This document shows, piece after piece, positions 27,290 through 46,574 of a stretch of DNA of 64,000 nucleotides (the stretch's first letter is position 1; every line of letters starts with the position of its first letter). The stretch lies in assembly GCF_056746865.1 (NCBI RefSeq), contig NZ_CM163382.1. The stretch is one strand, 5' to 3'. Under the pieces are notes generated by a model. That model was not told the origin of the DNA. It did not search any database and saw nothing but the letters and a program-made list of their open reading frames with translations. The translations under genes were made by a program, and so were the position numbers.

Positions 27290-27389
27290 GGCTGAAATCA
27301 ATCAATCTGTTTTTGTGATAGAAATATATTTATCTACCACTTTTTTCGATCAATAATGTGCATAATTTAGTCATTAAGAGGAAATTGCT

Positions 27390-27596: not shown

Positions 27597-27692
27597 TGAA
27601 TCGCTGGTACAGCATCAAAGCAGAGGGACGCCAATGTTATCTAACTCAGGTTTTATGAATTCTGACTCCCGATTCAAAATAGGAGGTTACTA

Positions 27693-30224
27693 ATGCCAGT
27701 CGTACCAACAGTATCCGGACGTCAGGTTGAGAGCCGTGGAGTTCAGTCAGCAGGCTTGCAGACGTTTTCTCAGCCAGGTATTGGTGATGCTTTTGTTCGG
27801 GCAGGGGCAGAGGCAATTGATGTTTTTGGTCAGGCAAAACAGCGTGCCAATATTGCCTTGATTCAGGAGGCATCCCTTAAACTCAGTCAGATAGGCAGTG
27901 ATCTGCTGAATAATCCTGAAACAGGATTGCTTAACCTGAAAGGGAAAAATGCTATTGGAAAAGGCCATGAGTATACACAGCAGTTTGATGCTCAGATCGA
28001 ACAACTGGCTATGTCGCTGCCGGATGAACAGGCTCGTAATGCTTTCATGCAGCAGGCGCAGCAGCAGCGTATTCAGTTCGCTACGCAGGCCGGGAGGTAC
28101 GAGATAGGGCAAATAAATGCCTACGAAGAAGGCCAGTTTCAGGCGACACTGCTGAATAATGGTAAAAATGCCTCAGCATTATATGGCGACAACGCAGCAT
28201 ACATATTGGCTAATACGCAAACTTTCCAGCAAATTGAGGATTACGGTATTGCGCATGGCTGGAGCGACGAGCAAATCCAGGCCAAGAAAATCGAGTTTAA
28301 AGAAGCAACAGCAAAAGCAACTGCTCAAAATGCTATTGGAGCAAACTATCTTCAGGTAAGACAGCAAAATGGCGAGTTAAGCGATACTGCTGCTGGATCT
28401 CGCCGTGCTGTAGCAGATAGTGGCTCTTCCGATCGTACCCGCGGTATACGCAACAATAACCCCGGCAATCTTGAATACAGCAAAACTAATCCGTGGATTG
28501 GGCAGACTGGTGATGATGGTCGCTTTGCCAAATTCGAAACCCCTGAACACGGTATTCGCGCGCTTGGTCGCAATTTGCTGTCGTATCAGCGTCAGGGTTA
28601 TGACACCATCAGCGAAATAATTAATCGCTGGGCACCGGCCAGTGATGATAATAAAACTGATGCTTATATACGGGCAGTATGTGCTCAGCTCGGTGTAACT
28701 CCTGACCAGCCGCTTGACGCATCAAATCCTGACACACTGAAATCTCTGTGCAAAGCAATTATTCATCATGAGCAAGGCAGTCAGCCGTACAGTGATCAGC
28801 AATTGGCCGCTGGCGTTAGTGCCGCACTGGGGCTTTCTCAGCTACCGACAAAAAATAAACGTTATACCGGTGTAGCCTGGTTCGATGCTTTAAGTGAATC
28901 AGATCAGGCCAGCGTGTTGCGACAGACGGATGCATTAGCCAGACAGCAGCAGGCTGAATATAGAACGATGCTCGAAAGCCGGGTTCGCGATGCAACGGCT
29001 GCGTATATGCGTGGCGTTGAATTTCCTAACCCGCCTGGTGAGGGTGAGTTCATTGCTGCTTATGGTGTCAGAGAAGGAAACCTGCGATATACCGAGTTCA
29101 GAAATTTGCAGATCGCCGGACAGTATATAGGCTCTTTCCGCAACATGCCGACAAGCAGCATTACCGCATATGTTGAGCAATTACGCCCGGATACTGGTGA
29201 GACAGGGGAGGGGTATGCGTCTCGTGCGGAGTTATTCGACCGGGTATCGGCGGCAGCCACGAAGGTAATAACCCAGAGGCAGAATAATCCGTTTAGTGCA
29301 GCGGTGGAAATCGGAGCCTATAAGCCGATCACCAGCAACAACCCTGACGACATCACTGCCGAGGTGGCTAACCGTTTCTCGTCGCAGGAAAGCTTACGCG
29401 CGTTGGGAATTAATGCCCCACTCCTCAACAGTGAAGAGGCGGCTGCGCTGGCACAGCAGGTGCGCGGCACTCAGAACGTTGACCAGACAATTAAACTGTT
29501 GCAGAGCATGGGGGAGAAGCTGCCTGCGCCAGCAATACGGCAGGTGGCATCTGTAATTGCTCCGAACAGTGCGGCAACAGCCTATTCTGCGCTGCTGCTG
29601 GGCACGCCGGATAACCAGTACGACAACACCAGGCCGACGATCCCATATAGTCAGTTCATCGGGTATAAGCCGACGATGAACAAGTACGACGTTGCAAAGG
29701 TTATTCTTTCCGGCGACCAACTACTGAATCCGACGAAGGCCATGAAGAATGCGGGCATAACTCCGGTACAGTTGCCGAGCGAAGATAAGATGAAAGACGC
29801 TTTCGACGAACAGGTAGGTAATGCATTTGCCCGTAACCCGCAGTTACGCCAGATCAGTTATAGCCTTTTCAAAGCCGCTTACGCAGGAATAGCTTATCAA
29901 TCTGGTGATGCCTCTACGGTAAGAACCAGTATGCCTGATACAGACATTGTAGCTGATGCCGTGAAGTATGCTACTGGCGGTATATACAATGGTTTTAATG
30001 GCGGCGACGTTGTAATGCCTTTTGGCATGGATAAATCTACTTTCAAAGATCGCTATACCACATCTGCGAAACAAGCACTGAAAGATGCCGGACTTAACGT
30101 AAATGCAGTGTCAAATTTCACGCCAGTTAATATCGGCAATAACCGGTATCGGCTTGTAAATGGTAGCGGACGCTGGGCAACAGATCCCAGAACCAATAAA
30201 GCTATTGTCGTGAGGGTTGAATAA
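27693..30224 (+). CDS. Large hypothetical protein P1 (843 aa), Q/A-rich, conserved-looking block RNNNPGNLEY...
   Basis: Strong RBS AGGAGG before ATG 27693; stop overlaps next start (TAATG). Confidence 0.8.
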   Translation: MPVVPTVSGRQVESRGVQSAGLQTFSQPGIGDAFVRAGAEAIDVFGQAKQRANIALIQEASLKLSQIGSDLLNNPETGLLNLKGKNAIGKGHEYTQQFDAQIEQLAMSLPDEQARNAFMQQAQQQRIQFATQAGRYEIGQINAYEEGQFQATLLNNGKNASALYGDNAAYILANTQTFQQIEDYGIAHGWSDEQIQAKKIEFKEATAKATAQNAIGANYLQVRQQNGELSDTAAGSRRAVADSGSSDRTRGIRNNNPGNLEYSKTNPWIGQTGDDGRFAKFETPEHGIRALGRNLLSYQRQGYDTISEIINRWAPASDDNKTDAYIRAVCAQLGVTPDQPLDASNPDTLKSLCKAIIHHEQGSQPYSDQQLAAGVSAALGLSQLPTKNKRYTGVAWFDALSESDQASVLRQTDALARQQQAEYRTMLESRVRDATAAYMRGVEFPNPPGEGEFIAAYGVREGNLRYTEFRNLQIAGQYIGSFRNMPTSSITAYVEQLRPDTGETGEGYASRAELFDRVSAAATKVITQRQNNPFSAAVEIGAYKPITSNNPDDITAEVANRFSSQESLRALGINAPLLNSEEAAALAQQVRGTQNVDQTIKLLQSMGEKLPAPAIRQVASVIAPNSAATAYSALLLGTPDNQYDNTRPTIPYSQFIGYKPTMNKYDVAKVILSGDQLLNPTKAMKNAGITPVQLPSEDKMKDAFDEQVGNAFARNPQLRQISYSLFKAAYAGIAYQSGDASTVRTSMPDTDIVADAVKYATGGIYNGFNGGDVVMPFGMDKSTFKDRYTTSAKQALKDAGLNVNAVSNFTPVNIGNNRYRLVNGSGRWATDPRTNKAIVVRVE

Positions 30225-32284
30225 TGTCTGATGTTTTTTCTTTGGCTCCAGAAGGTCAGGCATGGATTGACGACAAAACAGTTGCCAACCCAGCAAGGCC
30301 AGAAGACTACGATCCGACTCCCTTCCAGGGTTCAGGTACTGCACTTTTGAGCGGCGTGGCGGAGGGGGCTCTCGGTCTCGCGCAGTCTGCCGTCGGATTC
30401 AGCAAGCGTCTGATTAGCGATCCGGCATTTACCGCAGACGTGGCACCGACAGTTAATATTTTTCGGGAGATGTTCCCTGATGCTGACAAAACACTGAATG
30501 ATACATACGACACGATCGGAAAACAGTTACAGGATGCCCGCAGCTATGTGAAGCCTGATGCAGGCAGCCAGGGAATGGCGGCTGAGGTATTAAATGAGCT
30601 TGGTAAATTTGTTCCTGCAATCGGAACAACTATGTTTGGTGGTCCGCTCATCGGCGCTGCTACAGCCTTCAGTTCTACGTATGAGCAGTCCTATCAGGAT
30701 TTTAAAGGGAAGGGAGTAGACGAGGCTACAGCGCGTAACCTGGCAACGCAGCAGAGCCTTTTCAATGCTGTGGGTATGGCCTTACCCGCTGCCGTCGGCA
30801 CCACACTGGCAACGCGCATTGCCTCAGGTGTGGCAATCAACACCGGATTCGGTGGACTGAACCGTTACTCAGTAGGCGCAACACTGGAGGAAAAAGGCTA
30901 CACGGAGATGGCAAAACAGTATCGGGTATTTGACGGTCAGGCGATGTTAGTCGATGCCGTTTTAGGCGGGGTCTTTGGTGGCGTTCATCACCTGACTACC
31001 CATAATAACCATGATGGTACAGAGTCGAACATTTCTGCAGAAGAAATAAAATCAACTTTTGGTGAACATTATCAGCAATCTCCTGATGGTAACATTGAGT
31101 CAATGGTTCGTGATTTATCTGATTCAGGAGTAATAGAACTTATTAATGAACCAGCAATAAAAAATAGTGATGGAGAAATACTTCTGAATAAAGGTCATGT
31201 GACAGTAGCTTCCGGAAAAGAACCAATAATAAGAATAAATATTAATGGATTAAAAGACCATGAAGAACTGTTAGAAACCCTTCATCACGAGGCGCTTCAT
31301 CTTGAGCAGCGCCATTACCCTGACTGGAAGGCCAGAAAGCTAGCTAATGCTGTACTTAAATCTGCAAACAAGCATTCTGACTATCCTGAATTTGCATATG
31401 GGATGTCACAATATTATGAATATAAGAAAAGGGGTGAGTACCCTGAAACATATCCTGAGTGGTTGTACGCTGAAGAAGTTGCCGCACATGCAGTAAATCC
31501 ATCTCTAAAGACAAGCGTTTCATCATGGGAAAAAATTATTTCAGGTTTTAAAGCCTATATATTCAGATACAGTGGTATTCAGGTTGGAACCGTTACACCT
31601 GAGCAGTTACGGTTACTCGTAAGTATGCGTCTTCGCAATATGAAACTGGAAGCCGCAGTAGAAAAAGTTTTTGGTATCCGGGCGAGGGAAAGAATAAAAC
31701 CAAGCGATATTGATGCAGCCCACATTTTGAATGAGGGGCTTCATTACGATATTGAATCGTCACCAGTGCTTCATACCAGCAATGAGAGCATCAACAGCCA
31801 TGTTGACGCCATGGATGAAGCATACAGGCAACTTAATGATGGTCAGCCTGTAAATGTTGGGGGGATGGCGCGAGGGCTTGATGGTCCATTGCGATCAGAT
31901 ATATCTGATACTTACCAAGAGCAATACCATGAAATACAAAAGGTTTTTGAAGAAAATGGTGTCAGATACGAAACATCATCAGAGCCAATTAGTGAATCGC
32001 CTGTCCCTCGTGCTGAAAGTGCTTTCTCATCGGCTGGTGAACACAGAGGGGACATCAGCGTTGATCCAGATACAGGGCAGGTTCTCTCATCCAACAGCTA
32101 TGACCTTATGGCTGCCAGGGACATGGCTGTTGCCAATCCTGAGCTGACTATAGCTCACCCGGAAACCGGAAACCCGACAAAACTTTCTGATCTCCTGGCT
32201 GAGTTGGATGAACAGATTAAGACAGTCCAGAACGAATCGAAGGTTTATTCTGTAGCAGCAGCGTGCTTCTTGAGGAACCCATAA
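30224..32284 (+). CDS. Large hypothetical protein P2 (686 aa) with glycine-rich hydrophobic segments and an HExxH motif
   Basis: HEALH at nt 31286-31300; N-terminal third has repeated Gly/Ala-rich hydrophobic stretches; TAATG coupling at both ends. Confidence 0.8.
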   Translation: MSDVFSLAPEGQAWIDDKTVANPARPEDYDPTPFQGSGTALLSGVAEGALGLAQSAVGFSKRLISDPAFTADVAPTVNIFREMFPDADKTLNDTYDTIGKQLQDARSYVKPDAGSQGMAAEVLNELGKFVPAIGTTMFGGPLIGAATAFSSTYEQSYQDFKGKGVDEATARNLATQQSLFNAVGMALPAAVGTTLATRIASGVAINTGFGGLNRYSVGATLEEKGYTEMAKQYRVFDGQAMLVDAVLGGVFGGVHHLTTHNNHDGTESNISAEEIKSTFGEHYQQSPDGNIESMVRDLSDSGVIELINEPAIKNSDGEILLNKGHVTVASGKEPIIRININGLKDHEELLETLHHEALHLEQRHYPDWKARKLANAVLKSANKHSDYPEFAYGMSQYYEYKKRGEYPETYPEWLYAEEVAAHAVNPSLKTSVSSWEKIISGFKAYIFRYSGIQVGTVTPEQLRLLVSMRLRNMKLEAAVEKVFGIRARERIKPSDIDAAHILNEGLHYDIESSPVLHTSNESINSHVDAMDEAYRQLNDGQPVNVGGMARGLDGPLRSDISDTYQEQYHEIQKVFEENGVRYETSSEPISESPVPRAESAFSSAGEHRGDISVDPDTGQVLSSNSYDLMAARDMAVANPELTIAHPETGNPTKLSDLLAELDEQIKTVQNESKVYSVAAACFLRNP

Positions 32285-35040
32285 TGAAACAGGCATGTGT
32301 GGAAGCTATTGCGCAGACACTTGGTCGCCAGCCAAAGGCTGATGAGCTGAAAAATATTGAAGATCGTATCAAAGAAGCTGTGCAGCATGTGCACAGAAAG
32401 AATGCCAAAGAAGGCAAAAGTGGTATTCCTGATGCTCAAACATACATGGATGCAGCAGAACTGGTACGCCAGCGTGTGGTTCATGATGTGTACAAGAAAA
32501 GACAGCGTGTTGCCCAGAATGCGATCGCCATCAGTAAAATTACTGACACTCTCGATGCTAACATCCCGCCTGATCAGCAGACACCTGTTAATTTGCAGCA
32601 GTTTATTTTTGCTGGCCGACGATCGAGAGACAAAGCTGATATCTCCGTTACTTCTGCTGAAGAACTTGCAATTGGGGCATATCAGGACTGGTCCCGTCAG
32701 CTCAGTGCTGAACTTCTAAAAGCAGGTGATGACGTCCGCAAATTCTTCGAGCAGAGCAGGGCGCTTGGAGAGCAGCGGTTTCGGAGTGTATTCGACAGGC
32801 AGGCGGCAAAGTCTGCACAACTCCAGATCCTGAAAGAAATATATGGCGAAGATACCGGGAATCCCCTGGCGAAGAAAATTGCACAGATTTGGAAGGATGT
32901 AACAGGCCGTGTTCGTCATGAGATGAACGACAATGGCTTTGACATAGGCCTGCGAGAAGACTGGCATACGCCATATGTGGATGATGCTGACCTTATTCGC
33001 AATGCCGGGCGCGAAGAATGGCTGGCATCGTTACCAGTGGCAGAGCAAGCTACAGCACGTCTTTCAGGTCGCCAGCCACCGATTGAGTTTGCCCGCCAGA
33101 AATGGGTTGATGACGCTTACAACACGCAGGATCGCAGCAATTACGTTAATCCTGACGGCAGCATTATGAATGACGTCGAGTACCGTCAGGCACTGGAAGC
33201 GATCTTTGAAACGAAGGCCACTGATGGGGCAAACAAAATTGAGCCTGGTACATTTATGGGAGCCGGAGGAATAAAGAGCCGTGGTTCTCAGCACAGGGTG
33301 ATGGCGTTCAAGGATGCGCAGTCACACTTCGCCTATATGGAACGATACACTCAGCAGCCGCTGGTGGGGGTGATGATGTCGCACCTGCAATCATCATCCA
33401 GGGATTTGGGCGTCGTTAAAGCCTTTGGTCCGGACGCCGAAAGAAACTTTTCCCTGGTACTGGATCGCATCTATAAGCGCGCAGTAACAGGCGGGAAACG
33501 CAAAAAAGAAATGGAGGATGAGGCCAAATTAGTTGCCCGTATGTTCAACTCAATGGCTGGCCTAAATGGTGTCGCTTCATCGAGTGTGTTCTCTTCAGCA
33601 GTTGGTGGTCTGCGTAACCTGATGACCAGCGCCATGCTTGGCACCAGCGTACTGACAGCAACCAGCGACCAGGCAATTATGCGGGCAAATGCGCAGGCGC
33701 TGGGCTTTACCCGTGGTGGAATGCGGCTTTCCGTTAACACTATCAAAAACCTGTTTAGTGGAGATGCCAAAAAGGCGAATGCTGAACTCGGTCTGCTGGT
33801 GGATTCACATGCTGCTGTGGTTTCGAAAATGGGCGGGTTTGACTTGTCTCGCGGCATAACTGGCTGGTTCGCAGAGAAGACACTGAAGTGGTCCGGGCTG
33901 ATCGCTATGGACCGCGCAAACAAAGCGTCGTTTGGTCTCCTGATGTACAAAAACATTGGCGAGCTGACCAGAAAATTTAAGACGCTGGACGATATGAAAG
34001 GAACCGATAAAACCATTCTGGCTAACAAGGGATGGAGCAATGAGGACTGGGCCATCATGGCAGCGGCAGAACTCAGGCCGATGACTACTGCCGGGCATAT
34101 GGGGATGACGCCAGACGCGATTTACGCTGTGCCCGATAACGTAATAGCCGACATTATGGCAGACCGTATTACCCGGATTCGTGCCGGGAGTGAAAAGGCA
34201 CTGGCAGCCCTTGGAGATCTCCCTCCAGAACGCCTGAAACGGATGAAAGAAGCATTCGACGCTGAGGCTGAGCAGACCATCACGCGCATGATTCGTAATG
34301 CACGCGCTGAAGCAGCCCAGAAATTGCTGGGAATTACGCACGGTGAGATGACCAATGCTGTGACCACCGCTACGGGTATTGATACATATGCCCGTGATGA
34401 TGCTGGCGAGTTAATGAAGAGCTTCATGCTCTTCAAAACAACCCCATTTGCTGGATTTCGGCAACTTGTTAACAGAACACGGGATTTGGACACCGTTCCG
34501 GCCATTAAATTTCTGGCCTCATATATCGGGGGAACAACTCTTGCTGGTATGTTTGCGATCCAGATGAACAGTTTGTTAAATGGTAATGATCCGCTGGATA
34601 TGACAAAACCAACCACATGGGTTCAGGCTTTACTGAAAGGTGGTTCGTTCGGTATCTACGGTGATTTTATTTTCCAGGACCATACGCAATATGGCTCCAG
34701 CATCGGTGCCACTATGGGTGGCCCTGTGTTGAGCTTTGCAGAGCAGTTAACAAAATTACTGATTACTAACCCACAGAAGGCTCTACAGGGTGAAGAAACA
34801 TCATTCGGTGCCGATGCACTGAAAACAGCCCGCATGATCACCCCATTCGCAAACCTGTGGTATGCGAAAGCGATAACCAATCACCTGATATTGCAACAAC
34901 TTCAGGAGATGGCAAACCCTGGTTACAATGATCGAGTAAGGGACCGCGCGCAACGGGAGTTCGACATAACGAGTTGGTGGGAACCGGGTGCTATTGCGCC
35001 ACGTAGAGCACCGGATTTTGGAAAGGCGGTGGGGAACTGA
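32284..35040 (+). CDS. Large hypothetical protein P3 (918 aa)
   Basis: ORF 32263..35040; start taken at MKQACVEAIAQ (ATG 32284 overlapping P2 stop); Gly-rich hydrophobic segments toward C-terminus. Confidence 0.8.
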   Translation: MKQACVEAIAQTLGRQPKADELKNIEDRIKEAVQHVHRKNAKEGKSGIPDAQTYMDAAELVRQRVVHDVYKKRQRVAQNAIAISKITDTLDANIPPDQQTPVNLQQFIFAGRRSRDKADISVTSAEELAIGAYQDWSRQLSAELLKAGDDVRKFFEQSRALGEQRFRSVFDRQAAKSAQLQILKEIYGEDTGNPLAKKIAQIWKDVTGRVRHEMNDNGFDIGLREDWHTPYVDDADLIRNAGREEWLASLPVAEQATARLSGRQPPIEFARQKWVDDAYNTQDRSNYVNPDGSIMNDVEYRQALEAIFETKATDGANKIEPGTFMGAGGIKSRGSQHRVMAFKDAQSHFAYMERYTQQPLVGVMMSHLQSSSRDLGVVKAFGPDAERNFSLVLDRIYKRAVTGGKRKKEMEDEAKLVARMFNSMAGLNGVASSSVFSSAVGGLRNLMTSAMLGTSVLTATSDQAIMRANAQALGFTRGGMRLSVNTIKNLFSGDAKKANAELGLLVDSHAAVVSKMGGFDLSRGITGWFAEKTLKWSGLIAMDRANKASFGLLMYKNIGELTRKFKTLDDMKGTDKTILANKGWSNEDWAIMAAAELRPMTTAGHMGMTPDAIYAVPDNVIADIMADRITRIRAGSEKALAALGDLPPERLKRMKEAFDAEAEQTITRMIRNARAEAAQKLLGITHGEMTNAVTTATGIDTYARDDAGELMKSFMLFKTTPFAGFRQLVNRTRDLDTVPAIKFLASYIGGTTLAGMFAIQMNSLLNGNDPLDMTKPTTWVQALLKGGSFGIYGDFIFQDHTQYGSSIGATMGGPVLSFAEQLTKLLITNPQKALQGEETSFGADALKTARMITPFANLWYAKAITNHLILQQLQEMANPGYNDRVRDRAQREFDITSWWEPGAIAPRRAPDFGKAVGN

Positions 35041-35354
35041 TGACGAGAGATAAAATTGAATATATTGCTTCTCTTAAATATGAAGCTGAGAAATGGAGAA
35101 GGATTGGCGGGTGGGGAACATTAATATCACTCTCTGCTTTACTTATAGACTCCTGGTTCAGACATATTGATGCAGCATCATTACTTTTTGAATCAGCAGT
35201 ACTTGGTGGATTCATTTGCTGTTGGGGTGGTAATTATGATCGGGCGTCCAAACATAAGAGAGAACTTGACGCGATATGTTTTGCTTTATTCGGTAAGGAT
35301 TACGAAAGTTCTGACCTTGATATAATTGAATTCAACAAAACGGAACTATCGTGA
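35040..35354 (+). CDS. Small predicted membrane protein P4 (104 aa)
   Basis: ATGA overlap with P3 stop; two hydrophobic segments (GTLISLSALLIDSWF, AVLGGFICCWGG). Confidence 0.6.
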   Translation: MTRDKIEYIASLKYEAEKWRRIGGWGTLISLSALLIDSWFRHIDAASLLFESAVLGGFICCWGGNYDRASKHKRELDAICFALFGKDYESSDLDIIEFNKTELS

Positions 35355-35362
35355 CATGTCAC

Positions 35363-35388
35363 AGGCCGCTTTCGCGGCCTTGTTTTTA
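35363..35388 (+). terminator. Rho-independent terminator closing the P1-P4 operon
   Basis: aggccgctttcgcggcct followed by tgttttt, 9 bp after the P4 stop. Confidence 0.6.
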
Positions 35389-36054
35389 ACGAATGCCACC
35401 GCCGCCCGGGCGGGAATTCGCAGATAAAAAAGCACGCTGCACGGTTTTATTAATACTTATACCATTAGGATTGATCCTTCAATGGACAATCCTTCCATCG
35501 TGTGGCCAGCCATTCATATTCTTTGTCTTTTCTTCAGTATCGGCTTTGCATCTTCTACACCCTGAAAGATGTCGTTTTATGGTGTATCTGATGATTTATT
35601 CCCTAACAATAGATATTCGAAAAATTAATCAGTTAAAACAATTATTTGGATAATTTCAGGTAAAACTATCTTAATCTTCTGGTGGATCTCAATGCGTAGT
35701 GACGGTATCGGGATTAAGGGCGTGGATATTCGCGATATATGCCGCTACACCCCTCAACAGTAATAGATATGAGCTTTTCACGCTCTCCTTTCACTGCTGA
35801 GAACGGCAACAACGTGCCACAGGAACGCGCTGTAATCGATTCTGACGCACTTAATTGCGTTGGGTAATGGTTTTTGCCAGCCTGTGGGGGTAACTCTGTT
35901 TTATGAGGCTTTGGCTATAGTGCAAAAATACACTTTGTCTTGCCTCTCAATTTGATGAGACTGGAACGACAACAGGACAGACCACCAGCAACAGTTACCG
36001 TATTCAGCCGTTCTGTGGCACCAGTGGAACTATCAACCCCTGCTTTCAGCAATG

Positions 36055-36212
36055 TGTTTGCGGGTTATTTTGGGGCGTTTGCGGGTTATTTGGGATGTTT
36101 TGCGGGTTATGTGATGCTTGAATAATGAACAGTGTATTTTGCAACATATTGATACTAAAGAACAAAAAATAGTTAGCATACTAAGATAACCCGGTAACCC
36201 GCATAACCCGCA
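36055..36212. repeat. Iteron cluster 2: three direct TTGCGGGTTAT copies then three inverted ATAACCCGC copies
   Basis: Same 11-mer family as cluster 1 at 24716-24845, about 11.3 kb away. Confidence 0.65.
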
Positions 36213-36699
36213 CTGTTTTGTATATATATACGAAAAATTGCATTCAGGAGGGGGGGAGCGAAATCCCTACAATCCATTGCTTATGGGACCGCCCGCCTCG
36301 TCAAATTTTTACACCCGCGAAATAAAAAAATACTTCACGCTGGTGGGCATGATGCTGATATGGGAGGCTTCCATAACGCCACCATTCGGAACTATGCAAA
36401 TCTGCATAGAAAAGGGGATGCCTGATACAATACCCTCGCCCGATAAAATCACACCGATAAACTCATCTGCCACGAGTAGAAAGAGCGAACGAACCCGATA
36501 CGCAGTAATGCTTGTCGGGTACAGCTTTTTAAGGCGGCTGTAGATATCAGGCCATCCGTGATCATCCACCAGCGAGATAGCCGATAACGATGACGCATAA
36601 CCCTCAAGCGAGGGATAAATGTGTATAGAAATGTGTATAGAATTGATTTTAGAACTCGCAGGATTCGCGCTATTACTGGCCTTGTGTGATGTTGTATTG

Positions 36700-36717
36700 T
36701 TCCCTTCGCCCGCTCCA
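36700..36717. repeat. tRNA 3'-end remnant / right att repeat (TTCCCTTCGCCCGCTCCA)
   Basis: 18 nt consistent with T-arm/acceptor stem/CCA of tRNA-Gly (glyU-like) as I recall it; contains the 15-bp repeat shared with 16792-16806. No complete tRNA in the window. Confidence 0.55.
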
Positions 36718-36949
36718 ATTTATCTTCACCTCATCAACCTGCCATTTTTGTTGTATCTGATTTTCTATATTATCTTAATTCAATCGCTTCAGACTTTTCG
36801 CAATCGCCGTAATACTTCCCCATTTTTTTGTAAATAAAAGCGTTTACGCAATGCAATCCATTTGTAACAACCCAGGTAAAATACCTTATTTTCAAGTTGT
36901 TAAATAAGTGGTTATCTACGCTTTTAACAAACGATTGATGGAATCTTTT

Positions 36950-38221
36950 ATGAAAGGGAAATCTACATTAACTCTTCTGCTCGCTGGTATATTTTCATGC
37001 TGCACATGCCAGGCGACAGGGGCAGAAGTGACGAGTGAATCTGTATTTAACATTCTTAATTCCACGGGGGCAGCAACTGATAAAAGTTATTTATCGTTAA
37101 ATCCAGATAAGTATCCTAATTATCGTCTTCTGATTCACTCAGCCAAATTAAAAAATGAAATAAAGAGCCACTATACCAAAGACGAAATTCAAGGATTGTT
37201 AACATTAACAGAAAATACACGAAAGTTAACGTTGACGGAGAAACCATGGGGAACATTTATTCTTGCTTCTACTTTCGAAGATGACAAAACAGCGGCAGAA
37301 ACCCACTATGATGCTGTCTGGCTGAGGGATAGTTTATGGGGCTATATGGCATTAGTATCAGATCAGGAAAATAGTGTAGCCGCAAAAAAGGTTCTGCTCA
37401 CTCTGTGGGATTATATGTCTACGCCAGACCAGATTAAACGGATGCAGGACGTCATTAGCAACCCAAAACGACTGGATGGTATTCCTGGGCAAATGAATGC
37501 TGTGCATATCCGATTTGACAGCAACTCCCCCGTGATGGCAGATGTGCAGGAAGAAGGCAAGCCGCAGCTGTGGAACCATAAACAAAATGATGCGTTAGGT
37601 CTTTATCTTGATCTCCTTATACAAGCAATCGACACTGGTACTATTAACGCTGAAGATTGGCAAAAAGGTGACCGATTAAAATCGGTTGCGCTGCTGATTG
37701 CTTATCTGGATAAAGCCAATTTCTATGTTATGGAAGATTCCGGAGCGTGGGAAGAAGATGCCAGATTAAACACATCTTCCGTTGCACTGGTGACCTCTGG
37801 ACTGGAACGTTTGTCGAACTTACTCTCGAAGAAAGACTCTGTTTTTGTCTCTGATTTACTACGCGAAGCTAAAGCTAATGAACTGGATGAACCACTTTCA
37901 ACAACGAGGTTGAACCACCTCATAGATAAAGGTTATGAAAGAATAACGTTACAGCTTGATTTAGGGGGAGAATCCCCAGGTTATCTGGAAAAAGATAAAC
38001 ATTACAGAGAAGCCGATGCGGCTTTACTTAATGTTATTTATCCTGCAAATCTTTCAAAGATAAATACCAGAAGAAAAGAGCAAGTTCTAAAAATAGTTAA
38101 AAAACTAGCAGGTCCGTATGGTATAAAAAGATACGAGAAGGATAATTATCAGTCGGCAAATTTTGGTTCAATGATATTAAAACCGATACCGATCAAAATT
38201 CACATGCAAAAAGAGAAATGA
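36950..38221 (+). CDS. Putative secreted protein/lipoprotein (423 aa) at the ETT2 island edge
   Basis: ORF 36908..38221; start taken at MKGKSTLTLLLAGIFSCCTCQA (signal peptide, possible lipobox). Confidence 0.55.
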   Translation: MKGKSTLTLLLAGIFSCCTCQATGAEVTSESVFNILNSTGAATDKSYLSLNPDKYPNYRLLIHSAKLKNEIKSHYTKDEIQGLLTLTENTRKLTLTEKPWGTFILASTFEDDKTAAETHYDAVWLRDSLWGYMALVSDQENSVAAKKVLLTLWDYMSTPDQIKRMQDVISNPKRLDGIPGQMNAVHIRFDSNSPVMADVQEEGKPQLWNHKQNDALGLYLDLLIQAIDTGTINAEDWQKGDRLKSVALLIAYLDKANFYVMEDSGAWEEDARLNTSSVALVTSGLERLSNLLSKKDSVFVSDLLREAKANELDEPLSTTRLNHLIDKGYERITLQLDLGGESPGYLEKDKHYREADAALLNVIYPANLSKINTRRKEQVLKIVKKLAGPYGIKRYEKDNYQSANFGSMILKPIPIKIHMQKEK

Positions 38222-38559
38222 GCTTCATTCCATCAACAGAAGCAGAATGGTTTTTTGACTCATGGTATGCAAAATCAGCAGCAATTGTTTATAAAGAATC
38301 AAGAAAAGAAGAGTATTTGAATGACTCAGTGCAATTTATGAATAGATCATTGGCCCAAATAACAGGCGAGAATATGATTGGTGCAAATGGCAGGAGCGTA
38401 CCTGAAATGGCACTTCCCGAAAGCTATAACTATATCCACAAGTCAGGAACTTTGCATGAAGCGCCAAGCCCTATCATTCCGCTAAACTGGTCGAAAGCCT
38501 CAATGACTCTTATGTTGAAAGAAATGTCCAATCTTATCAATGATGAGGGAATTAAATAG
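38218..38559 (+). CDS. Hypothetical protein (113 aa); could be a frameshifted continuation of the upstream gene
   Basis: ATG overlaps upstream stop at an A-rich tract. Confidence 0.35.
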   Translation: MSFIPSTEAEWFFDSWYAKSAAIVYKESRKEEYLNDSVQFMNRSLAQITGENMIGANGRSVPEMALPESYNYIHKSGTLHEAPSPIIPLNWSKASMTLMLKEMSNLINDEGIK

Positions 38560-38567
38560 TTTTCATA

Positions 38568-38804
38568 ATGAAGCGGTCCTGGATTAAAAGGACCGCTCAA
38601 AGAGAAATCGTAAGGGAGGTAAAAGTGATCAATAAATTACTGTTAGCTTACCTGATAGGTCTGGTTGTGACATCGACCTTAATATTTATCTTCTCGGAAG
38701 AAAAAGTAACATATCGGTTGTTTGCTGCAGTAATTACAGGGTTGACATGGCCGCTTAGCCTCATTCCATCCATCATAAGTCTCATGATTCGTAAATCCGA
38801 CTAA
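38568..38804 (+). CDS. Small membrane protein (78 aa)
   Basis: Two hydrophobic helices. Confidence 0.35.
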   Translation: MKRSWIKRTAQREIVREVKVINKLLLAYLIGLVVTSTLIFIFSEEKVTYRLFAAVITGLTWPLSLIPSIISLMIRKSD

Positions 38805-39149
38805 CAAGAAAATTATATGAACGATTAAGAAAAATAGAATCGGAAAAGAGAATAAAATATATGCAGGGAGTAACAAAACACTCGCAGTGCGTTAATGTGT
38901 AACTAACAAATATGATTTTTATTGAAAATAGTCACCAAACAAGTGTTATAAGAAATACGGGGTATGTTTAAGTAAAACATATCAACAGTTGCAATTCTGT
39001 ATATGGACAGGATGACGTACAAGTGTAAGTGGCTGATAGCTATTCGCTCATAACAAAATCATTATTTTATAAATAGGAATCATCACTTTTTAATCATGTT
39101 TTTATTGCAAGTTTATGGAGAATGAGAATATGGAATAAGGAGATGAAAC

Positions 39150-39899
39150 ATGATTGAAGAAGGGCTGTTACTTCCAATGAATGTTTTGCTTCAAGGACAG
39201 AAGTTAACCCTACTGGACCCTGAAATGTGGTTCTTACGGGGAAATGAAAACAAGGATGTAACCCTTGTTATTACGATTGGTAATAACCATCAAAAATTAA
39301 TGGTAGTGGAAGACATATTACTGCTCATTGACCGAAGCCAAATTGAGGTAACTGCAGGGAAAGTAATTTATCATCCACTTCGCATTGATATCCTGAGTAA
39401 ATTATTAGCTTTTATTGATGAATCAACGGGGAGTGTGGAAAGGGAACACCATGAGTTGTTTGCTGATGCCTTGCCCTTTGCATCAGAAGTTGTGCTATTC
39501 AGTAAAGTTGCAAGTGAAGCCTGGTTTTTAGCCACTTATCTGAGCAGCGATAATATTAATGAAATTCTGTTTCAGCATCTAAGAAAAACAGAATGCTATA
39601 AACTGGTTCGCTATTTATTATCGCAATCGCTCATACAGACTTCACTCTATGATCTTGGTGAGCTTTACGGCGTATCGTATTCACATTTTCGCCGTTTATG
39701 TAGTTATGCATTGGGTGGTAAAGTTAAAACGGAATTATGTGGCTGGAGAGTTGCCAGAGCCGTGTTGGAAATCATTGAAGGAAACAGTGATATGACAACT
39801 ATTGCGCATAAATATGGCTACTCATCCTCATCACACTTTTCAGCTGAAGTAAAAAGTCGGTTAGGAAAAACACCGAGAGAACTATGTAAAAAGTTATGA
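39150..39899 (+). CDS. eivF: AraC-family T3SS transcriptional activator (InvF homolog)
   Basis: 249 aa with C-terminal AraC HTH; directly upstream of secretin gene as in inv loci. Confidence 0.82.
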   Translation: MIEEGLLLPMNVLLQGQKLTLLDPEMWFLRGNENKDVTLVITIGNNHQKLMVVEDILLLIDRSQIEVTAGKVIYHPLRIDILSKLLAFIDESTGSVEREHHELFADALPFASEVVLFSKVASEAWFLATYLSSDNINEILFQHLRKTECYKLVRYLLSQSLIQTSLYDLGELYGVSYSHFRRLCSYALGGKVKTELCGWRVARAVLEIIEGNSDMTTIAHKYGYSSSSHFSAEVKSRLGKTPRELCKKL

Positions 39900-41599
39900 A
39901 AATAAAATTACGTATTACTATTATATTAATTTCAGCCTTATGCATTTTTAATGGATTATTGACTCCTGGTGCATATGCCGCAACAGCGAATGGATACGTA
40001 GCAAATAAAGAAAATCTACGTAGTTTTTTTGAAACGGTTTCATCATATGCGGGTAAGCCTACAATAGTAAGTAAGCTTGCCATGAAGAAACAGATCAGCG
40101 GAAATTTTGATTTAACCGAACCCTATGCCTTGATTGAACGCCTGTCGGCGCAGATGGGACTTATTTGGTACGATGATGGCAAAGCTATTTATATCTATGA
40201 CTCATCAGAGATGCGTAATGCTCTGATTAATCTGAGAAAGGTATCGACTAATGAGTTTAATAATTTCTTAAAAAAATCGGGTCTGTATAACTCTCGTTAT
40301 GAAATTAAAGGGGGCGGCAATGGTACTTTCTATGTATCGGGGCCACCGGTTTATGTTGACCTGGTCGTTAATGCTGCAAAATTAATGGAGCAAAACAGTG
40401 ATGGCATCGAGATCGGACGCAATAAAGTAGGGATTATTCACCTGGTCAACACATTCGTTAATGATCGGACTTATGAATTACGTGGCGAAAAGATAGTTAT
40501 TCCTGGCATGGCAAAAGTACTATCGACGTTGTTAAATAATAACATTAAGCAAAGCACTGGGGTTAACGTACTTTCTGAAATTTCAAGTCGTCAACAACTA
40601 AAAAACGTATCACGTATGCCTCCTTTTCCTGGTGCTGAAGAAGATGATGATCTACAAGTAGAGAAAATAATATCGACAGCTGGAGCGCCAGAGACTGACG
40701 ATATACAAATTATTGCATATCCTGATACCAACAGTTTACTTGTTAAAGGAACAGTATCTCAGGTTGATTTTATCGAGAAGTTAGTAGCTACACTCGATAT
40801 TCCAAAGCGACACATTGAATTATCTTTATGGATAATAGATATTGATAAGACTGATCTAGAACAGTTAGGAGCTGACTGGTCGGGCACGATAAAAATTGGA
40901 TCCAGCCTAAGTGCATCATTTAATAATTCAGGTTCAATTAGTACCCTGGATGGGACACAGTTTATTGCAACAATACAGGCACTTGCGCAAAAAAGAAGAG
41001 CCGCCGTTGTTGCTCGTCCTGTCGTTTTAACACAGGAGAATATTCCTGCTATATTTGATAATAACCGTACTTTCTATACTAAATTAGTCGGCGAGCGTAC
41101 TGCGGAGTTGGATGAAGTAACCTATGGTACGATGATTAGCGTGCTACCACGATTTGCTTCGCGAAATCAAATTGAATTACTCTTGAATATTGAAGATGGC
41201 AATGAAATCAATTCTGACAAGACCAATGTTGATGATCTGCCTCAGGTTGGTAGAACGCTTATAAGTACTATTGCGCGCGTGCCTCAAGGGAAAAGTCTTT
41301 TGATTGGTGGATATACACGAGATACGAATACCTATGAAAGTCGCAAGATCCCAATATTAGGCAGTATTCCATTTATTGGTAAATTATTTGGATATGAAGG
41401 AACAAATGCGAATAACATCGTTCGTGTCTTTCTTATTGAGCCAAGAGAGATCGATGAGCGCATGATGAATAATGCGAATGAGGCTGCGGTTGACGCCAGA
41501 GCAATAACACAGCAAATGGCAAAAAATAAAGAAATCAACGATGAATTACTGCAGAAATGGATAAAAACTTACCTGAATCGTGAAGTCGTCGGAGGATAG
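39896..41599 (+). CDS. eivG: T3SS outer-membrane secretin (InvG homolog)
   Basis: 567 aa; strong similarity to InvG as I recall it (e.g. ...GLIWYDDGKAIYIYDSSEMRNALINLRKVSTNEFNNFLKKSGLYN...TFYVSGPPVYVDLVVNAA...). Confidence 0.93.
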   Translation: MKIKLRITIILISALCIFNGLLTPGAYAATANGYVANKENLRSFFETVSSYAGKPTIVSKLAMKKQISGNFDLTEPYALIERLSAQMGLIWYDDGKAIYIYDSSEMRNALINLRKVSTNEFNNFLKKSGLYNSRYEIKGGGNGTFYVSGPPVYVDLVVNAAKLMEQNSDGIEIGRNKVGIIHLVNTFVNDRTYELRGEKIVIPGMAKVLSTLLNNNIKQSTGVNVLSEISSRQQLKNVSRMPPFPGAEEDDDLQVEKIISTAGAPETDDIQIIAYPDTNSLLVKGTVSQVDFIEKLVATLDIPKRHIELSLWIIDIDKTDLEQLGADWSGTIKIGSSLSASFNNSGSISTLDGTQFIATIQALAQKRRAAVVARPVVLTQENIPAIFDNNRTFYTKLVGERTAELDEVTYGTMISVLPRFASRNQIELLLNIEDGNEINSDKTNVDDLPQVGRTLISTIARVPQGKSLLIGGYTRDTNTYESRKIPILGSIPFIGKLFGYEGTNANNIVRVFLIEPREIDERMMNNANEAAVDARAITQQMAKNKEINDELLQKWIKTYLNREVVGG

Positions 41600-41603
41600 T
41601 GAA

Positions 41604-42749
41604 ATGGCGATTCATGTAGAGCATGTCGGTGTATTAGAAAGAGCCAGAGAAGTTTCTCGCTTAGAGGACATTATCACAGAAGATAATGAAGATATTGAAG
41701 CTGAAATGCCTAAAATGGGGGATGATCCCGCCGGTAAAGAAGCTCGATTCTTACAAGCTACTGACGAGATGTCAGCAGCGTTAACGCAGTTTATGAAGAA
41801 AAAAATCTACGAAGAACAACTGGCCAACTTTCTGGACGGAGAAGAATATGTCCTGGAAGATCAGCCAATAGAAAAAACCGATAAAGTCATGGAGGCGCTT
41901 AAGGCTGCAACTACCCATGACTATGAAGTGTATAGCTTTGCTAAAAAATTATTTCCAGATGAAAGCGATCTGGTGGTTGTATTACGTGCAATTTTACGTA
42001 AAAAACAAATATCTGAAAATGTGCGGCTAAACGCTGAAGCATTACTTAGAAAAGTTAATCAAGAGACTACTAAAAAATTCATTAATAGTGGCATTAACTC
42101 GGCATTAAAAGCAAAGTTATTTGGCCAGGCATTGTCATTAAATCCAAAATTACTAAGGGCAAGTTATCGACAATTTTTAATGGCAGAAGACGATGCTGTA
42201 GATACTTATGTAGAATGGATTGGTAGTTATGGCTATCAAAATAGAATGCTAGTGACAAAATTTATCAAAGAGACGCTTTTCTCAGATATAAATGCACTTG
42301 ATGCGAGTTGTTCATCATTGGAATTTGGTATGTTTCTCAATAAGTTGTCACAACTATTGTCTCTTCAGTCGGCAGAGGCTTTATTTCTGAAAACTTTAAT
42401 GAATAACCCAATAATTAAAAAATTTATTAGCGCAGAAGATTACTGGATATTTTTTCTGATATCGTTAATAAAGTTTCCTGAGACTGCAGAGGAACTCCTG
42501 AAAAATGCACTGGTAACCCTACCCGCAGATGCTAATTATAAAGACAAAACGTTACTCCTGAAGGCGATTTACAGCGGATGTACAAATCTTCCATTTTCAC
42601 TTTTTATTAATAATGAACAATTATTAGAGATTAGGGAGTGTTGTAAACAGGCAATAAAAGTAACATTTGCAGCAGAGCTCTTTGATACACAAAACAGTAA
42701 TAAAAAACAAAATAAAAAACCATGGAAGAAGGTAATGTTCAATGTTTAA
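41604..42749 (+). CDS. eivE: T3SS gatekeeper (InvE/SepL/YopN family)
   Basis: Position between secretin and InvA genes; ATG 41604 after GGAGGA. Confidence 0.8.
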   Translation: MAIHVEHVGVLERAREVSRLEDIITEDNEDIEAEMPKMGDDPAGKEARFLQATDEMSAALTQFMKKKIYEEQLANFLDGEEYVLEDQPIEKTDKVMEALKAATTHDYEVYSFAKKLFPDESDLVVVLRAILRKKQISENVRLNAEALLRKVNQETTKKFINSGINSALKAKLFGQALSLNPKLLRASYRQFLMAEDDAVDTYVEWIGSYGYQNRMLVTKFIKETLFSDINALDASCSSLEFGMFLNKLSQLLSLQSAEALFLKTLMNNPIIKKFISAEDYWIFFLISLIKFPETAEELLKNALVTLPADANYKDKTLLLKAIYSGCTNLPFSLFINNEQLLEIRECCKQAIKVTFAAELFDTQNSNKKQNKKPWKKVMFNV

Positions 42750-44802
42750 CAAAGTTTTGATAGGGTTAAGGAGTCATCCAGAATTAATAATTCTTGGATT
42801 AATGGTGATGATTATCGCCATGCTCATAATTCCATTGCCCACCTACTTAATCGATTTTTTGATTGGGCTGAACTTAACATTGGCAATACTTGTGTTTTTA
42901 GGATCATTCTATGTTGATAGGATTTTAAGTTTTTCTTCATTCCCATCAATTCTTCTCATCACAACGTTATTTCGTTTGGCGCTGGCGATCAGTACCAGCC
43001 GACTTATACTTCTTGAGGCGGACGCCGGAGAAATTATAACGAGTTTTGGTGAATTCGTTATTGGAGATAGCCTGGTAGTTGGTTTTGTTATTTTCTCCAT
43101 TGTTACTATTGTTCAGTTTATCGTGATTACTAAAGGTTCGGAACGTGTGGCTGAAGTTGCTGCCCGCTTTTCGCTTGACGGTATGCCAGGTAAACAAATG
43201 AGTATTGACGCCGATCTACGCGCCGGGATCATTGATGCAGATTTAGCAAAAGAACGTCGTAGCGTATTAGAACGAGAGAGTCAGCTGTATGGTTCCTTTG
43301 ATGGTGCGATGAAATTTATCAAAGGTGATGCTATTGCAAACATTATTATTATCTTTGTTAATATTATCGGTGGGCTATCAGTAGGAGTAGGCCAAAATGG
43401 AATGGATTTCTCGACAGCGTTGACCGTCTACACAATTCTTACCGTCGGTGATGGTCTTGTTTCACAAATTCCAGCTTTATTAATTGCTATTAGTGCAGGG
43501 TTTATCGTAACGCGCGTGAATGGCGATAGTGATAATATGGGGCAAAATATAATGTCCCAGTTATTAAGTAATTCTTTTGTCATTATTGTGACATGTGTCC
43601 TCGCGCTAAGTATTGGGTTGCTTCCAGGTTTTCCCCTTCTTGTGTTTTTATGTTTGGCAGTAATCTTAGGAATTTATTTTTACTTTAAATTCAAAAAGAA
43701 AGGGGTTGAAGAAACGGTTGTTGAGGGAGATATCACCGTTGGGTTGGAACCCTATAATCAGGATGATGATATTTCATTAGGTATTATTAATAAACTTGAT
43801 CAGGTTATTACCGAAACGGTACCCTTGGTTTTGATTATGAATAGTGTACAGGCTAAAAAATACACTGAAATCAATCTTGCTGATAGGATTCGTAGTCAGT
43901 TTTTTATTGAGTATGGTATCCGTATTCCCGGTATTGTCATTCGCGAGGGGGAAGGCCTTAATGATGAAGATGTCATATTAATGCTAAATGAAGTCAGAGC
44001 CTCGCAATTTAAAATTTATCATGATCTTGTCTTGTTGGTTGAATATTCAGATGAAGTGGTTTCGACTTTGATCAAGAAACCTGTCATCGTAAATAATAAT
44101 GGTGAACAATATTATTGGGTTACAAAAAGTGATGCCCAAAAATTAACAAAAATTGGCTGTTATACTCGCACGGCCATGGATGAAATGTACAATCATTTAT
44201 CTGTATGTCTGGCTCATAATATTAATGAGTATTTTGGTATACAAGAAACCAAATATATTCTTGATCAATTAGAGATGAAGTATCCTGATCTATTAAAAGA
44301 AATATTAAGATATATAACCGTGCAGCGCATTTCAGAGGTAATTCAGCGTCTGATCCAGGAGCGAATTTCAGTGCGCAATATGCGTTTAGTTATGGAGGCT
44401 TTAGCATTATGGAGCCCACGAGAGAAAGATATAATTACACTCGTCGAGCATGTACGAGGTGCATTAGGTCGCTACATTTGCCATAAGTTTTCATATTCTG
44501 GAGAAATTAAAGCAATTGTGATTTCGCCTGAAATAGAGGACAGAATCAGAGATGGTGTCAGGCCTACCGCTGGCGGTACTTTTCTTAATCTCGATGCATC
44601 CGAAGCTGAGATGATTCTGGATAATTTTAAACTGGCTCTTTCTGGAATCAATATTCCTATTAAAGACATTATTTTACTGGGATCTGTGGATATTCGTCGT
44701 TTTATCAAAAAACTTATTGAATCTAGTTATCGAGACCTCGAAGTACTTTCGTACGGGGAACTAACGGAAAATGTTCCCGTTAATATTCTGAAAACTATTT
44801 AG
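42742..44802 (+). CDS. eivA: T3SS export gate protein (InvA/FlhA family)
   Basis: 686 aa; near-identical blocks to InvA ([55 protein letters not shown]). Confidence 0.95.
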
Positions 44803-44833
44803 GATAATGTCTTGCGATATGGAGCATGCTGGT

Positions 44834-46126
44834 ATGAAAAAATTAAAACTATTAAATAAATACAGCTACTTACATAGCATAAACGGCTCGCTGATTGAAG
44901 CAGAGCTTGACGACGTTTCAGTGGGCGAAGTATGCGAAATTTATGCGAGCTGGCAAGCAAATGAACGTATAGCCAGGGCTCAGGTCGTTGGCTTTCGCAA
45001 TGGAAAGACATTATTAAACCTTATAGGCAGCTCTGTGGGGCTTACACGTACTGCAGTTTTGAAACCAACGGGAGAGCAGTTAACCATACAGATCAGTGAT
45101 GCCTTTCTTGGTTCAGTTTTGAATGCTTCTGGTCAAATTATGGAAAGGTTTGTCCCGGACACTCCAGGCGAAAGGGGAAATTTACGCCTGATTGATGAAC
45201 TGCCACCGTCGTATCAGGAACGTCGAGTTATTAATACACCACTAGAGACACGGATAAGAGTCATTGATGGCGTACTGACATGTGGCATTGGTCAACGTGT
45301 TGGGATTTTCGCATCGGCTGGCTGTGGCAAAACGGTTTTAATGCATATGCTTGTAAACAACACTGAAGCTGATGTGTTTGTTATTGGCTTGATTGGCGAA
45401 CGTGGAAGGGAAGTTACGGAATGCGCGGAATCGCTGAAAAAATCAGTAAATGCAGCAAAATGTGTTTTGGTTTATGCCACCTCTGATTTTTCGTCAGTAG
45501 ATCGGTGTAATGCCGCCCTGATGGCGACAACCGTGGCAGAGTATTTTAGAGATCGTGGAAAGAGAGTTGTACTTTTTATCGACTCAATGACGCGGTATGC
45601 ACGAGCACTACGCGATATGAAGCTGGCAGCGGGTGAACCACCTGCCAGGCGTGGTTATCCTGCTTCTGTTTTTGACAGTTTACCTCGCTTACTGGAGAGG
45701 CCGGGACCAACATTAAAAGGAAGTATTACTGCGTTTTATACCGTATTACTGGAGGGGGAGGATGAATCAGACCCACTGGGTGATGAAATTCGCTCAATCC
45801 TTGATGGCCATATCTATCTAAGTCGCAAACTCGCTGGGCAAGGTCATTATCCGGCAATAGATGTACTAAAAAGTGTGAGTCGAGTATTTGGTCAGGTCAC
45901 TGATGAAAAACACAGAGATAATGCAGCACGGGTAAGGAAGATCCTCACAACTTTGGAAGATCTACAGGTGTTTATTGATTTAGGGGAATATCGCGCTGGG
46001 CAAAATGCTGAAAATGATTTTGCTATGAATGCCCGGCCTAAACTCACAAATTGGTTAAAACAGTCAGTTAATGAAAAAATGCCAATGAGTGAAACGCTAA
46101 AAGAGCTTGAACGAATTGTTAAGTAA
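44834..46126 (+). CDS. eivC: T3SS ATPase (InvC/SctN)
   Basis: Start at [10 protein letters not shown]; Walker [12 protein letters not shown]; extensive InvC-like sequence. Confidence 0.95.
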
Positions 46127-46574
46127 AGTTAATCGACTTATCAGAAGAACAGCGCAGAGCCTGGCTGCATGTGAAGCATCATTACAAAAGTTAAATGCAG
46201 AAAAAGAAAAGTTAGTCGAAAAGGAACGCCTGTATGATATGCAACTTAAAAACCTACAGTCACTGTTAGATATGAAGGAATTACTCGGCGAAGTTGTATT
46301 TCGCCAGGATATATTTTACTCGTTACGTAAAGTTGCAGTCATTCAGCAGCAGATCGCTGAGATAAATCTTGAAAAGCAAAAAATAGCAGAGCGGCGAAAA
46401 ATACTTAACAAGGAAATAGTTCAACAGCAAGCACAAAGAAAACACTGGTGGCTAAAAGGAGAAAAGTACGATCGACTAAAGAAGCGCATCAAAAAACAAC
46501 TTTTAAATCAGATGCTTTATCAAGACGAGCTTGAACAGGAGGAGAAATATAATGGACGAAGTCAAGAAAATTGA
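46107..46574 (+). CDS. eivI: T3SS stalk protein (InvI/SpaM/SctO-like), coiled coil
   Basis: 155 aa coiled-coil protein right after ATPase gene. Confidence 0.65.

Follow-up and report, generated by a model that had tools for sequence, protein, structure and literature searches.

The locus and its features

The window analyzed here is a 64,000-nt stretch of contig NZ_CM163382.1 (RefSeq assembly GCF_056746865.1), and the locus of interest occupies positions 36950-38559 on its plus strand, where two ORFs meet and overlap. The first, ORF1, opens with an ATG at 36950 and closes with a TGA at 38219-38221, giving 423 aa from that ATG. A GTG farther upstream, at 36908, lengthens it to 437 aa, and the start assigned by PGAP to the intact ortholog is the equivalent of 36950. 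The second, ORF2, runs from an ATG at 38218 to 38559 (113 aa) and lies in the -1 frame relative to ORF1. The two share four bases, ATGA, and their boundary falls within the A-rich sequence gcaaaaagagaaATGA. An earlier note on this DNA had placed the end of the first ORF at 38221 and the start of the next at 38218 in another frame, and both the ORF list and the raw sequence agree with that description. The features on which the rest of this account depends are listed below.

36700-36717, plus strand: remnant of tRNA-Gly glyU, consisting of its 3'-terminal 18 nt and identical to the glyU 3' end in 118UI; attR of the island to the left and the chromosomal edge beside the gene
36950-38559, plus strand: whole GH15-family gene, ortholog of WP_000676946.1 (536 aa) and member of the family to which K-12 ygeQ belongs, as judged from the 118UI/SCU-105 CDS, PF00723 and the AF2 fold
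36950-37015, plus strand: probable Sec signal peptide MKGKSTLTLLLAGIFSCCTCQA, read from the sequence
36950-38221, plus strand: ORF1, 423 aa, made up of native residues 1-405, 18 out-of-frame residues GSMILKPIPIKIHMQKEK and a TGA (three-frame translation of the junction)
38146-38218, plus strand: stretch open in both frames, the sole interval where a frame change could rejoin the two parts (three-frame translation)
38158-38164, plus strand: formal X XXY YYZ heptamer, A AAT TTT as read in the frame of ORF1; slippage by -1 here would give back the native protein exactly (sequence and frames)
38161-38164, plus strand: the lesion, a run of four Ts (T4) that is five Ts (T5) in every intact allele; a 1-bp deletion after codon F405 (allele alignment and base-by-base comparison)
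38218-38559, plus strand: ORF2 (113 aa), which corresponds to native residues 424-536; conservation across the family is highest here, and the EAEWFFDSW motif is included (ORF list and invariant alignment columns)
38219, plus strand: lineage SNP, A to T, which changes native AAG (Lys424) to ATG (Met424); A in four other alleles (allele alignment)

To the left of the glyU remnant lies an integrase island of ~19.9 kb (16792-36699), and a complete tRNA gene was not found within the window. The same island adjoins an intact glyU in SCU-105. In the window, its att core, CTTCGCCCGCTCCA (16792-16805), is joined to sequence from inside cas5e. When compared with 118UI, this junction implies an inversion of ~136 kb, the breakpoints of which have the 7 nt CTTCGCC in common, and the cas5e/att junction was absent from every complete genome in the collection. 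A PADLOC search with three large ORFs of the island returned no matches.

Orthologs at the edge of ETT2

When positions 36700-38800 were compared by megablast with 5,426 complete E. coli genomes, 5,265 of these gave a match, which was nearly full-length in 3,256. Genes at the locus usually follow the order xdhA, actS, tRNA-Gly (glyU), a gene annotated as "glycoside hydrolase family 15 protein", a toxin gene of the GhoT/OrtT family, eivF, sctC and the remainder of ETT2, the GH15 gene being the first after glyU on the way to the type III secretion genes of ETT2. This edge of ETT2, proximal to glyU, has been described (PMC11068852, PMC7058095); the GH15 gene at this edge is not discussed in the ETT2 papers, and a literature search for ygeQ gave nothing informative about function.

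In ECA64, 98233, 118UI and SCU-105, PGAP annotates the equivalent of 36950-38559 as a single CDS of 1611 nt (536 aa), under the GH15 product name quoted above in all four. The respective proteins, WP_000676946.1 in 118UI and SCU-105 and WP_000676948.1 in ECA64, are encoded at the same locus, between glyU and a GhoT/OrtT-like gene plus eivF. Alignment to orthologs in other strains, the check proposed in the earlier note, therefore gave one continuous CDS spanning both ORFs. The orthologs were also looked at for a pair of genes with the same 4-bp overlap, and one gene was found; none of the relatives inspected carries the ORFs as separate genes. More distant homologs, from E. albertii, Yersinia enterocolitica, Commensalibacter, Elusimicrobiota, Planctomycetota and Bifidobacterium, are likewise single proteins of ~500-560 aa, with 40-77% identity over 88-99% of the 536-aa query. 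Judged by these alignments, ORF1 and ORF2 are shown to be two pieces of one 536-aa GH15-family gene.

A single-base lesion upstream of the boundary

The gene measures 1610 nt in the window instead of the 1611 nt of intact orthologs and is out of frame as a result. A five-allele alignment around the ORF boundary has a single gap, T4 in the window against T5 in the others, and it lies ~55 nt (55-60) upstream of the boundary. Base-by-base comparison gave the same picture on a larger scale: positions 36700-50000 of the window (13,301 nt) are equal to their counterpart in 118UI (13,302 nt) apart from one T, and positions 50001-64000 differ from 118UI by one substitution and zero gaps, for a total of one indel and one substitution across the 27.3 kb from 36700 to 64000. 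Within the gene, neither 118UI nor SCU-105 differs from the window by anything but the missing T. The allele of those two strains is thus the window's own allele with one more T, but it encodes an unbroken protein where T4 leaves ORFs of 423 aa and 113 aa.

These comparisons bear out the earlier suggestion of a single gene broken by a homopolymer indel, as the orthologs have one 1611-nt CDS and the nearest of them differs by one base. The accompanying implication, that the boundary and the indel both belong to an A-rich tract, held only in its first half. The boundary does lie in A-rich sequence; the lesion does not, and the A runs there are equal in length in all alleles aligned. An indel within the tract itself (38208-38218) was considered and rejected, as the alleles align across it gap-free, with substitutions only.

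Past Phe405, the ORF1 frame reads through the 18 foreign residues to its stop, while the native frame reads on as WFNDIKTDTDQNSHAKREMSFIPS... into ORF2; in the three-frame translation the native frame continues as ...ANFWFNDIKTDTDQNSHAKREMSFIPS. The ORF2 frame is open from a TAA at 38143-38145, and its position at -1 relative to ORF1 is the one predicted from a 1-nt deletion. Mechanistically, the loss of one T from the T5 run would cause a ribosome that has passed Phe405 to add 18 wrong residues and then to stop at the TGA.

The point where the two ORFs meet has a different origin. The AAG to ATG substitution at 38219 yields the start codon of ORF2 and, in the shifted frame, the TGA of ORF1, and both signals exist because of it. 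An 81-mer of the window around this SNP has an exact match in 122 of 3,267 complete genomes, among them 118UI, SCU-105 and GN05505, in which the SNP is combined with T5. The T run proved to be T5 in the four of these 122 genomes that were inspected, and PGAP calls an intact CDS in two of the four (118UI and SCU-105). As the alleles are read here, the ATGA overlap is a coincidence between a lineage SNP and an unrelated private deletion. Because the substitution would also supply an ATG in the native frame, an ORF finder would call a second ORF at that point. The practical lesson is that the place where two ORFs meet need not mark the frameshift; here, the lesion lies 55 nt upstream.

Rarity of the T4 allele and other lesions of the gene

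An 81-mer centered on the T run, used as a probe, matched 3,291 of 3,292 genomes at 95-99% identity. The match spanned 82 nt at 98.8% identity in 40 of the 40 matches listed, which is consistent with one extra T. The k-mer of the T4 allele is GGCAAATTTTGGTTCAATG. A T4-specific 46-mer, which is unable to seed on T5 genomes, resolved the one ambiguous 81-mer record and matched a single genome of the 5,426, that of SCU-482. This is the only other occurrence of T4 among the ~3,290 complete genomes with the region. The SCU-482 gene is already interrupted by an IS1 insertion, and the ~1.1 kb past the IS holds 12 gapped positions, nearly all of them changes in homopolymer length, which makes the stretch clearly error-dense. 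GN05505 was considered as another carrier of the lesion and rejected: it has T5, the 100.0% identity reported for it is a matter of rounding, and its gene carries an IS1 insertion instead.

At the protein level, the exact truncated product, from starts giving 423, 427 or 437 aa, was not found in a collection of 15 billion proteins; the evidence from this is weak, since pseudogenes are often left without a protein record. The intact 536-aa protein occurs on at least 1,000 contigs and belongs to a cluster of 13,903 members. Since T4 is absent elsewhere save in the error-dense stretch of SCU-482, the allele is private to the source of the window.

Other lesions of the same gene are plentiful. In EDL933 (O157:H7), a 5-bp deletion lies at the equivalent of window positions 37508-37512, and PGAP labels the gene (QI555_RS17960) "frameshifted". 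IS1 has inserted into the gene in both GN05505 and SCU-482, and several genomes, including that of an O16:H48 strain, have shortened matches annotated as ygeQ, from which part of the gene is missing. Further 1-bp homopolymer deletions (G5 to G4, C4 to C3 and T3 to T2) were seen in ST69-like lineages, and some of the independent lesions are common to 11-13 contigs. The frameshifted ortholog of EDL933 and the ygeQ-annotated copies thus belong to the same family at the same edge of ETT2 and were already known in truncated or frameshifted form, but their lesions differ from the one in the window: five base pairs are deleted in EDL933 and part of the gene is gone from the ygeQ-annotated copies, whereas the window has lost one base pair at 38161-38164. 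Mutational attrition has been described for ETT2 (PMC7058095, PMC11068852), and the recurrent, independent lesions of the GH15 gene fit that description. A gene split by a frameshift at this locus is an ordinary finding.

Protein family, fold and predicted export

The intact protein and ORF1 both match PF00723 (GH15), at 25.7 and 27.0 bits, respectively; with a cut-off of 22, these scores are marginal but above the threshold. ORF2 had no family match of its own in Pfam or NCBIfam. NCBIfam offered a usable family for neither fragment, the match to TIGR01577 being far under its cut-off. Structure prediction was more informative. Modeled with AF2 (pLDDT 86.6, pTM 0.89), the intact protein has an (alpha/alpha)6-barrel glycosidase fold, and Foldseek matched the model with a probability of 1.0 to GH15 glucoamylases, an isomaltose glucohydrolase and a GH15 dextran dextrinase. 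Other (alpha/alpha)6 glycosidases were matched too. The fold is shared with the GH15 structures 1ayx, 5z3c and 9ju0 and with the glucoamylase-like domain of phosphorylase kinase alpha/beta (8jfk), but the solved structures have only 12-15% identity to the E. coli protein and TM values of ~0.45-0.7. A starch-binding or N-terminal beta-sandwich domain was not noted in the E. coli protein, which has a predicted export signal. Among solved structures, its sequence comes closest to the glucoamylase-like domains of phosphorylase kinase alpha and beta, with a weak match to the beta subunit across a G-x-Y-G-x-K-R-Y/F-x-x-D-x-Y motif just ahead of the lesion. The predicted fold and the PF00723 score place the protein in the GH15 family, as a putative glycoside hydrolase.

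The N-terminus, MKGKSTLTLLLAGIFSCCTCQA|TG, is a probable Sec signal peptide by its sequence, and it also contains a weak lipobox-like IFSC. Residues 1-24 have low pLDDT and form a single helix in the AF2 model.

In the family alignment, E268/E269 and E491 are invariant, as is the whole of P490-E491-S492; E491 is encoded at 38419-38421. From resemblance to GH15 motifs, E268/E269 and E491 are presumed to be the candidate catalytic pair, with E491 as the candidate base. If this pair is correctly assigned, the candidate base would lie in the part of the protein now encoded by ORF2. Between one intact E. coli allele and another, dN/dS ranges from 0.09 to 0.21 (about 0.1), which indicates that the gene is under purifying selection.

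What the truncation would remove

The break falls in a well-conserved part of the protein. In an alignment of 15 sequences, N404 and W406 are invariant and F405 nearly so, right at the break, and the part encoded by ORF2 contains ~30 invariant columns, including E431, A432, W434-W439, N465, Q470, T472, G473, P490-E491-S492 and P511 to W514. The helices of the AF2 model past the break span residues 416-424, 435-451, 454-469 and 513-529. The 423-aa product is without the last 131 native residues (406-536), and with them go the last helices of the barrel. Because these helices and the ~30 family-invariant positions would be lost, the truncated product is expected to be inactive, provided that the base is truly missing in the organism. 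The lesion would also be recent, as the window allele has no further damage in a gene that is otherwise under purifying selection.

Weighing the explanations

The reading that best accounts for these observations is that one GH15 gene has been split by a real T5 to T4 mutation and is now a frameshift pseudogene, and this is considered probable. Its most serious competitor is an error of sequencing or assembly, in which the organism would retain the T5 run, with its 536-aa gene unbroken, and the T would have been lost through a homopolymer miscall. Several observations point that way. T4 is unique among ~3,290 genomes besides SCU-482, and SCU-482 itself demonstrates that a T5 to T4 miscall does arise in long-read assemblies, its T4 lying in a stretch that is clearly error-prone. 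The exact truncated protein is missing from the large protein collection, purifying selection otherwise acts on the gene, and the junction at 16792-16805, found in no other complete genome, could hint at assembly problems. Against this, the 27.3 kb compared with 118UI contain this indel and one substitution only, and 18 homopolymer runs (A/T of at least 5, G/C of at least 4) fall within the gene itself, where several indels would be expected if the assembly were error-prone. Moreover, independent real lesions of the gene are common, as the lesions found in 11-13 contigs and the "frameshifted" gene of EDL933 attest. An artifact is accordingly judged unlikely, if by no means negligible, and the balance leans about two to one toward a real and recent mutation.

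A more elaborate form of the mutational reading can also be imagined. Here, slippage by -1 on A AAU UUU, at a low level, would partly rescue a real T4 allele and leave the strain with a small amount of full-length enzyme, and the homopolymer deletions of the gene would reflect selection to switch off a predicted exported GH15-like protein at the edge of ETT2, not neutral decay. This is regarded as very improbable.

Still less credible is the view that the T4 allele is decoded through -1 ribosomal slippage on A AAU UUU (38158-38164) or through transcriptional slippage, with the 423-aa and full-length products made in a regulated or phase-variable manner. A programmed frameshift had to be considered since A AAT TTT is formally slippery: it fits X XXY YYZ, a -1 slip on it would restore the native ...ANFWFND..., both frames are open from 38146 to 38218, and 1-bp homopolymer changes of the gene recur in different lineages. 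However, the ancestral state is simply in frame, with T5 in 3,291 of 3,292 genomes and single ORFs in all the distant homologs. A pseudo-slippery site arises automatically after any homopolymer deletion, and the heptamer here exists because one base was deleted from the run; it is a by-product and not a conserved signal. Conservation of the two-frame arrangement among orthologs was not found either, as T4 occurs in 1 of 5,426 genomes and there in an error-dense stretch.

Efficient -1 sites in E. coli, such as those of dnaX and IS elements, are of the A AAA AAG type and work with stimulators. The site in the window resembles those of dnaX and IS1 insAB' in having a formal slippery heptamer and overlapping frames that would fuse to a longer product, but it differs from them in that no conservation, stimulatory hairpin or pseudoknot, or upstream SD-like enhancer was identified. 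When the 96 nt downstream of the heptamer (38165-38260) were folded and compared with 200 shuffles, no stimulatory structure was found: the MFE was -9.4 kcal/mol (z = +1.11), and 179 of the 200 shuffles folded at least as well. Nor does the locus have the look of a phase-variable contingency locus, the tract being 5 nt long and invariant in length in 3,291 of 3,292 genomes. A T run of 4-5 nt is far under the tract lengths at which transcriptional slippage or phase variation occurs (typically at least 7-9 nt). The programmed slip that the earlier note had offered as its second option was thus not borne out and was rejected, there being one other genome of ~3,290 with the arrangement, no downstream structure and an ancestral state in frame. 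A trace of -1 read-through to the full-length protein may still occur on the heptamer.

Finally, the idea that these are two genuine, separately evolved genes, translationally coupled through ATGA, has practically no probability left: ATGA overlaps are frequent in bacterial operons and on 290 public contigs the identical 113-aa sequence has a gene call of its own, as a "hypothetical protein", but in the three of these calls for which the context was shown, other lesions interrupt the upstream part and ORF2 begins at the first ATG past the break, its ATG is AAG (Lys) in four other aligned alleles and the window 81-mer has exact matches in just 122 of 3,267 genomes, neither Pfam nor NCBIfam gives ORF2 a separate family and it aligns to the C-terminal helices of a single-chain family, and the continuous-CDS orthologs already refute the two-gene reading.

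Significance

If the base is truly missing, the window holds a very recent and private frameshift pseudogene, and the T5 to T4 deletion would add one more private lesion to the well-documented attrition around ETT2. The locus is best annotated as one frameshifted GH15 gene (pseudogene), with ORF2 not entered as a "hypothetical protein" in its own right. The intact gene, which is conserved (dN/dS of ~0.1) and whose product is predicted to be exported, may deserve study for its own sake.

The Integrase Island and Its Junction with the CRISPR-cas Region

To the left of the glycoside hydrolase family 15 (GH15) gene lies an integrative island of about 19.9 kb (16792-36699), which in E. coli SCU-105 and a few other genomes is located at the tRNA-Gly gene glyU. 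The genes identified on it are as follows:

16931-18184, tyrosine integrase
22566-24692, DUF927 protein
25851-27059, IS605-family TnpB/OrfB
27693-35040, three large ORFs in succession (843, 686 and 925 aa)

Neither Pfam nor PADLOC returned a match for the three large ORFs, which could be uncharacterised cargo and are perhaps a defence system.

At the island's left end, the glyU att core, CTTCGCCCGCTCCA, is joined to the interior of the type I-E cas5e gene and not to glyU. ARAGORN found no tRNA genes in the whole window. The features around this joint are:

13477-13934, type I-E CRISPR array adjoining iap, with the 29-nt repeat CGGTTTATCCCCGCTGGCGCGGGGAACAC and a few spacers
13935-16798, cas2, cas1, cas6e and a cut-off cas5e, in that order
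16792-16805, junction of att core and cas5e (context 13900-16798 and 36700-36717, the latter an 18-nt remnant of the glyU 3′ end)

Since the junction truncates cas5e, the cas operon is incomplete in the window's arrangement. Moreover, compared with 118UI, the nearest relative, the cas region and the ETT2 type III secretion cluster are oppositely oriented. This points to a roughly 136-kb inversion, the breakpoints of which have 7 nt (CTTCGCC) in common. Among 5,426 complete genomes, no record covered at least 80% of window 12000-30000, which spans the junction. Integrase-mediated recombination at a pseudo-att site could have produced this joint, as could misassembly.

Gene Disruption in and around ETT2

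Directly 3′ of the GH15 gene, and ahead of eivF, is a small ORF for a GhoT/OrtT-family membrane toxin (38568-38804; PGAP-equivalent CDS 38625-38804; Pfam PF10753, E = 2.9e-11). In E. coli SCU-482 (NZ_CP053247.1, 3288000-3289200), PGAP labels this gene "frameshifted" because of gapped positions in a stretch of roughly 1.1 kb on the right-hand side of an IS1 insertion. There are 12 of these relative to 118UI, almost all of them homopolymer-length changes, and the stretch looks like a local cluster of long-read assembly errors in a RefSeq "complete" genome.

Within ETT2 the window is identical to 118UI, where PGAP marks two genes as broken:

46552-46782 and 46858-47427 (window equivalents), SpaN/EivJ needle-length gene, split
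47387-48374 (window equivalent), YscQ/HrcQ (SpaO-like) gene, frameshifted

Further genes are therefore disrupted in this ST69-type ETT2 (about 46552-48374).

Independent lesions were also found in GH15 orthologues of other genomes (loci L008, L009, L010, L002 and L004), listed here at their window equivalents:

37508-37512, 5-bp deletion, O157:H7 EDL933
~37960, T3 to T2, in a context common to 11 contigs
~37964, G5 to G4, in a context common to 13 contigs
~37974, C4 to C3
~38539, 1-bp deletion in strain C1, changing and lengthening the C-terminus

The GH15 gene is subject to recurrent inactivation, in contrast to the dN/dS of about 0.1 among its intact alleles.
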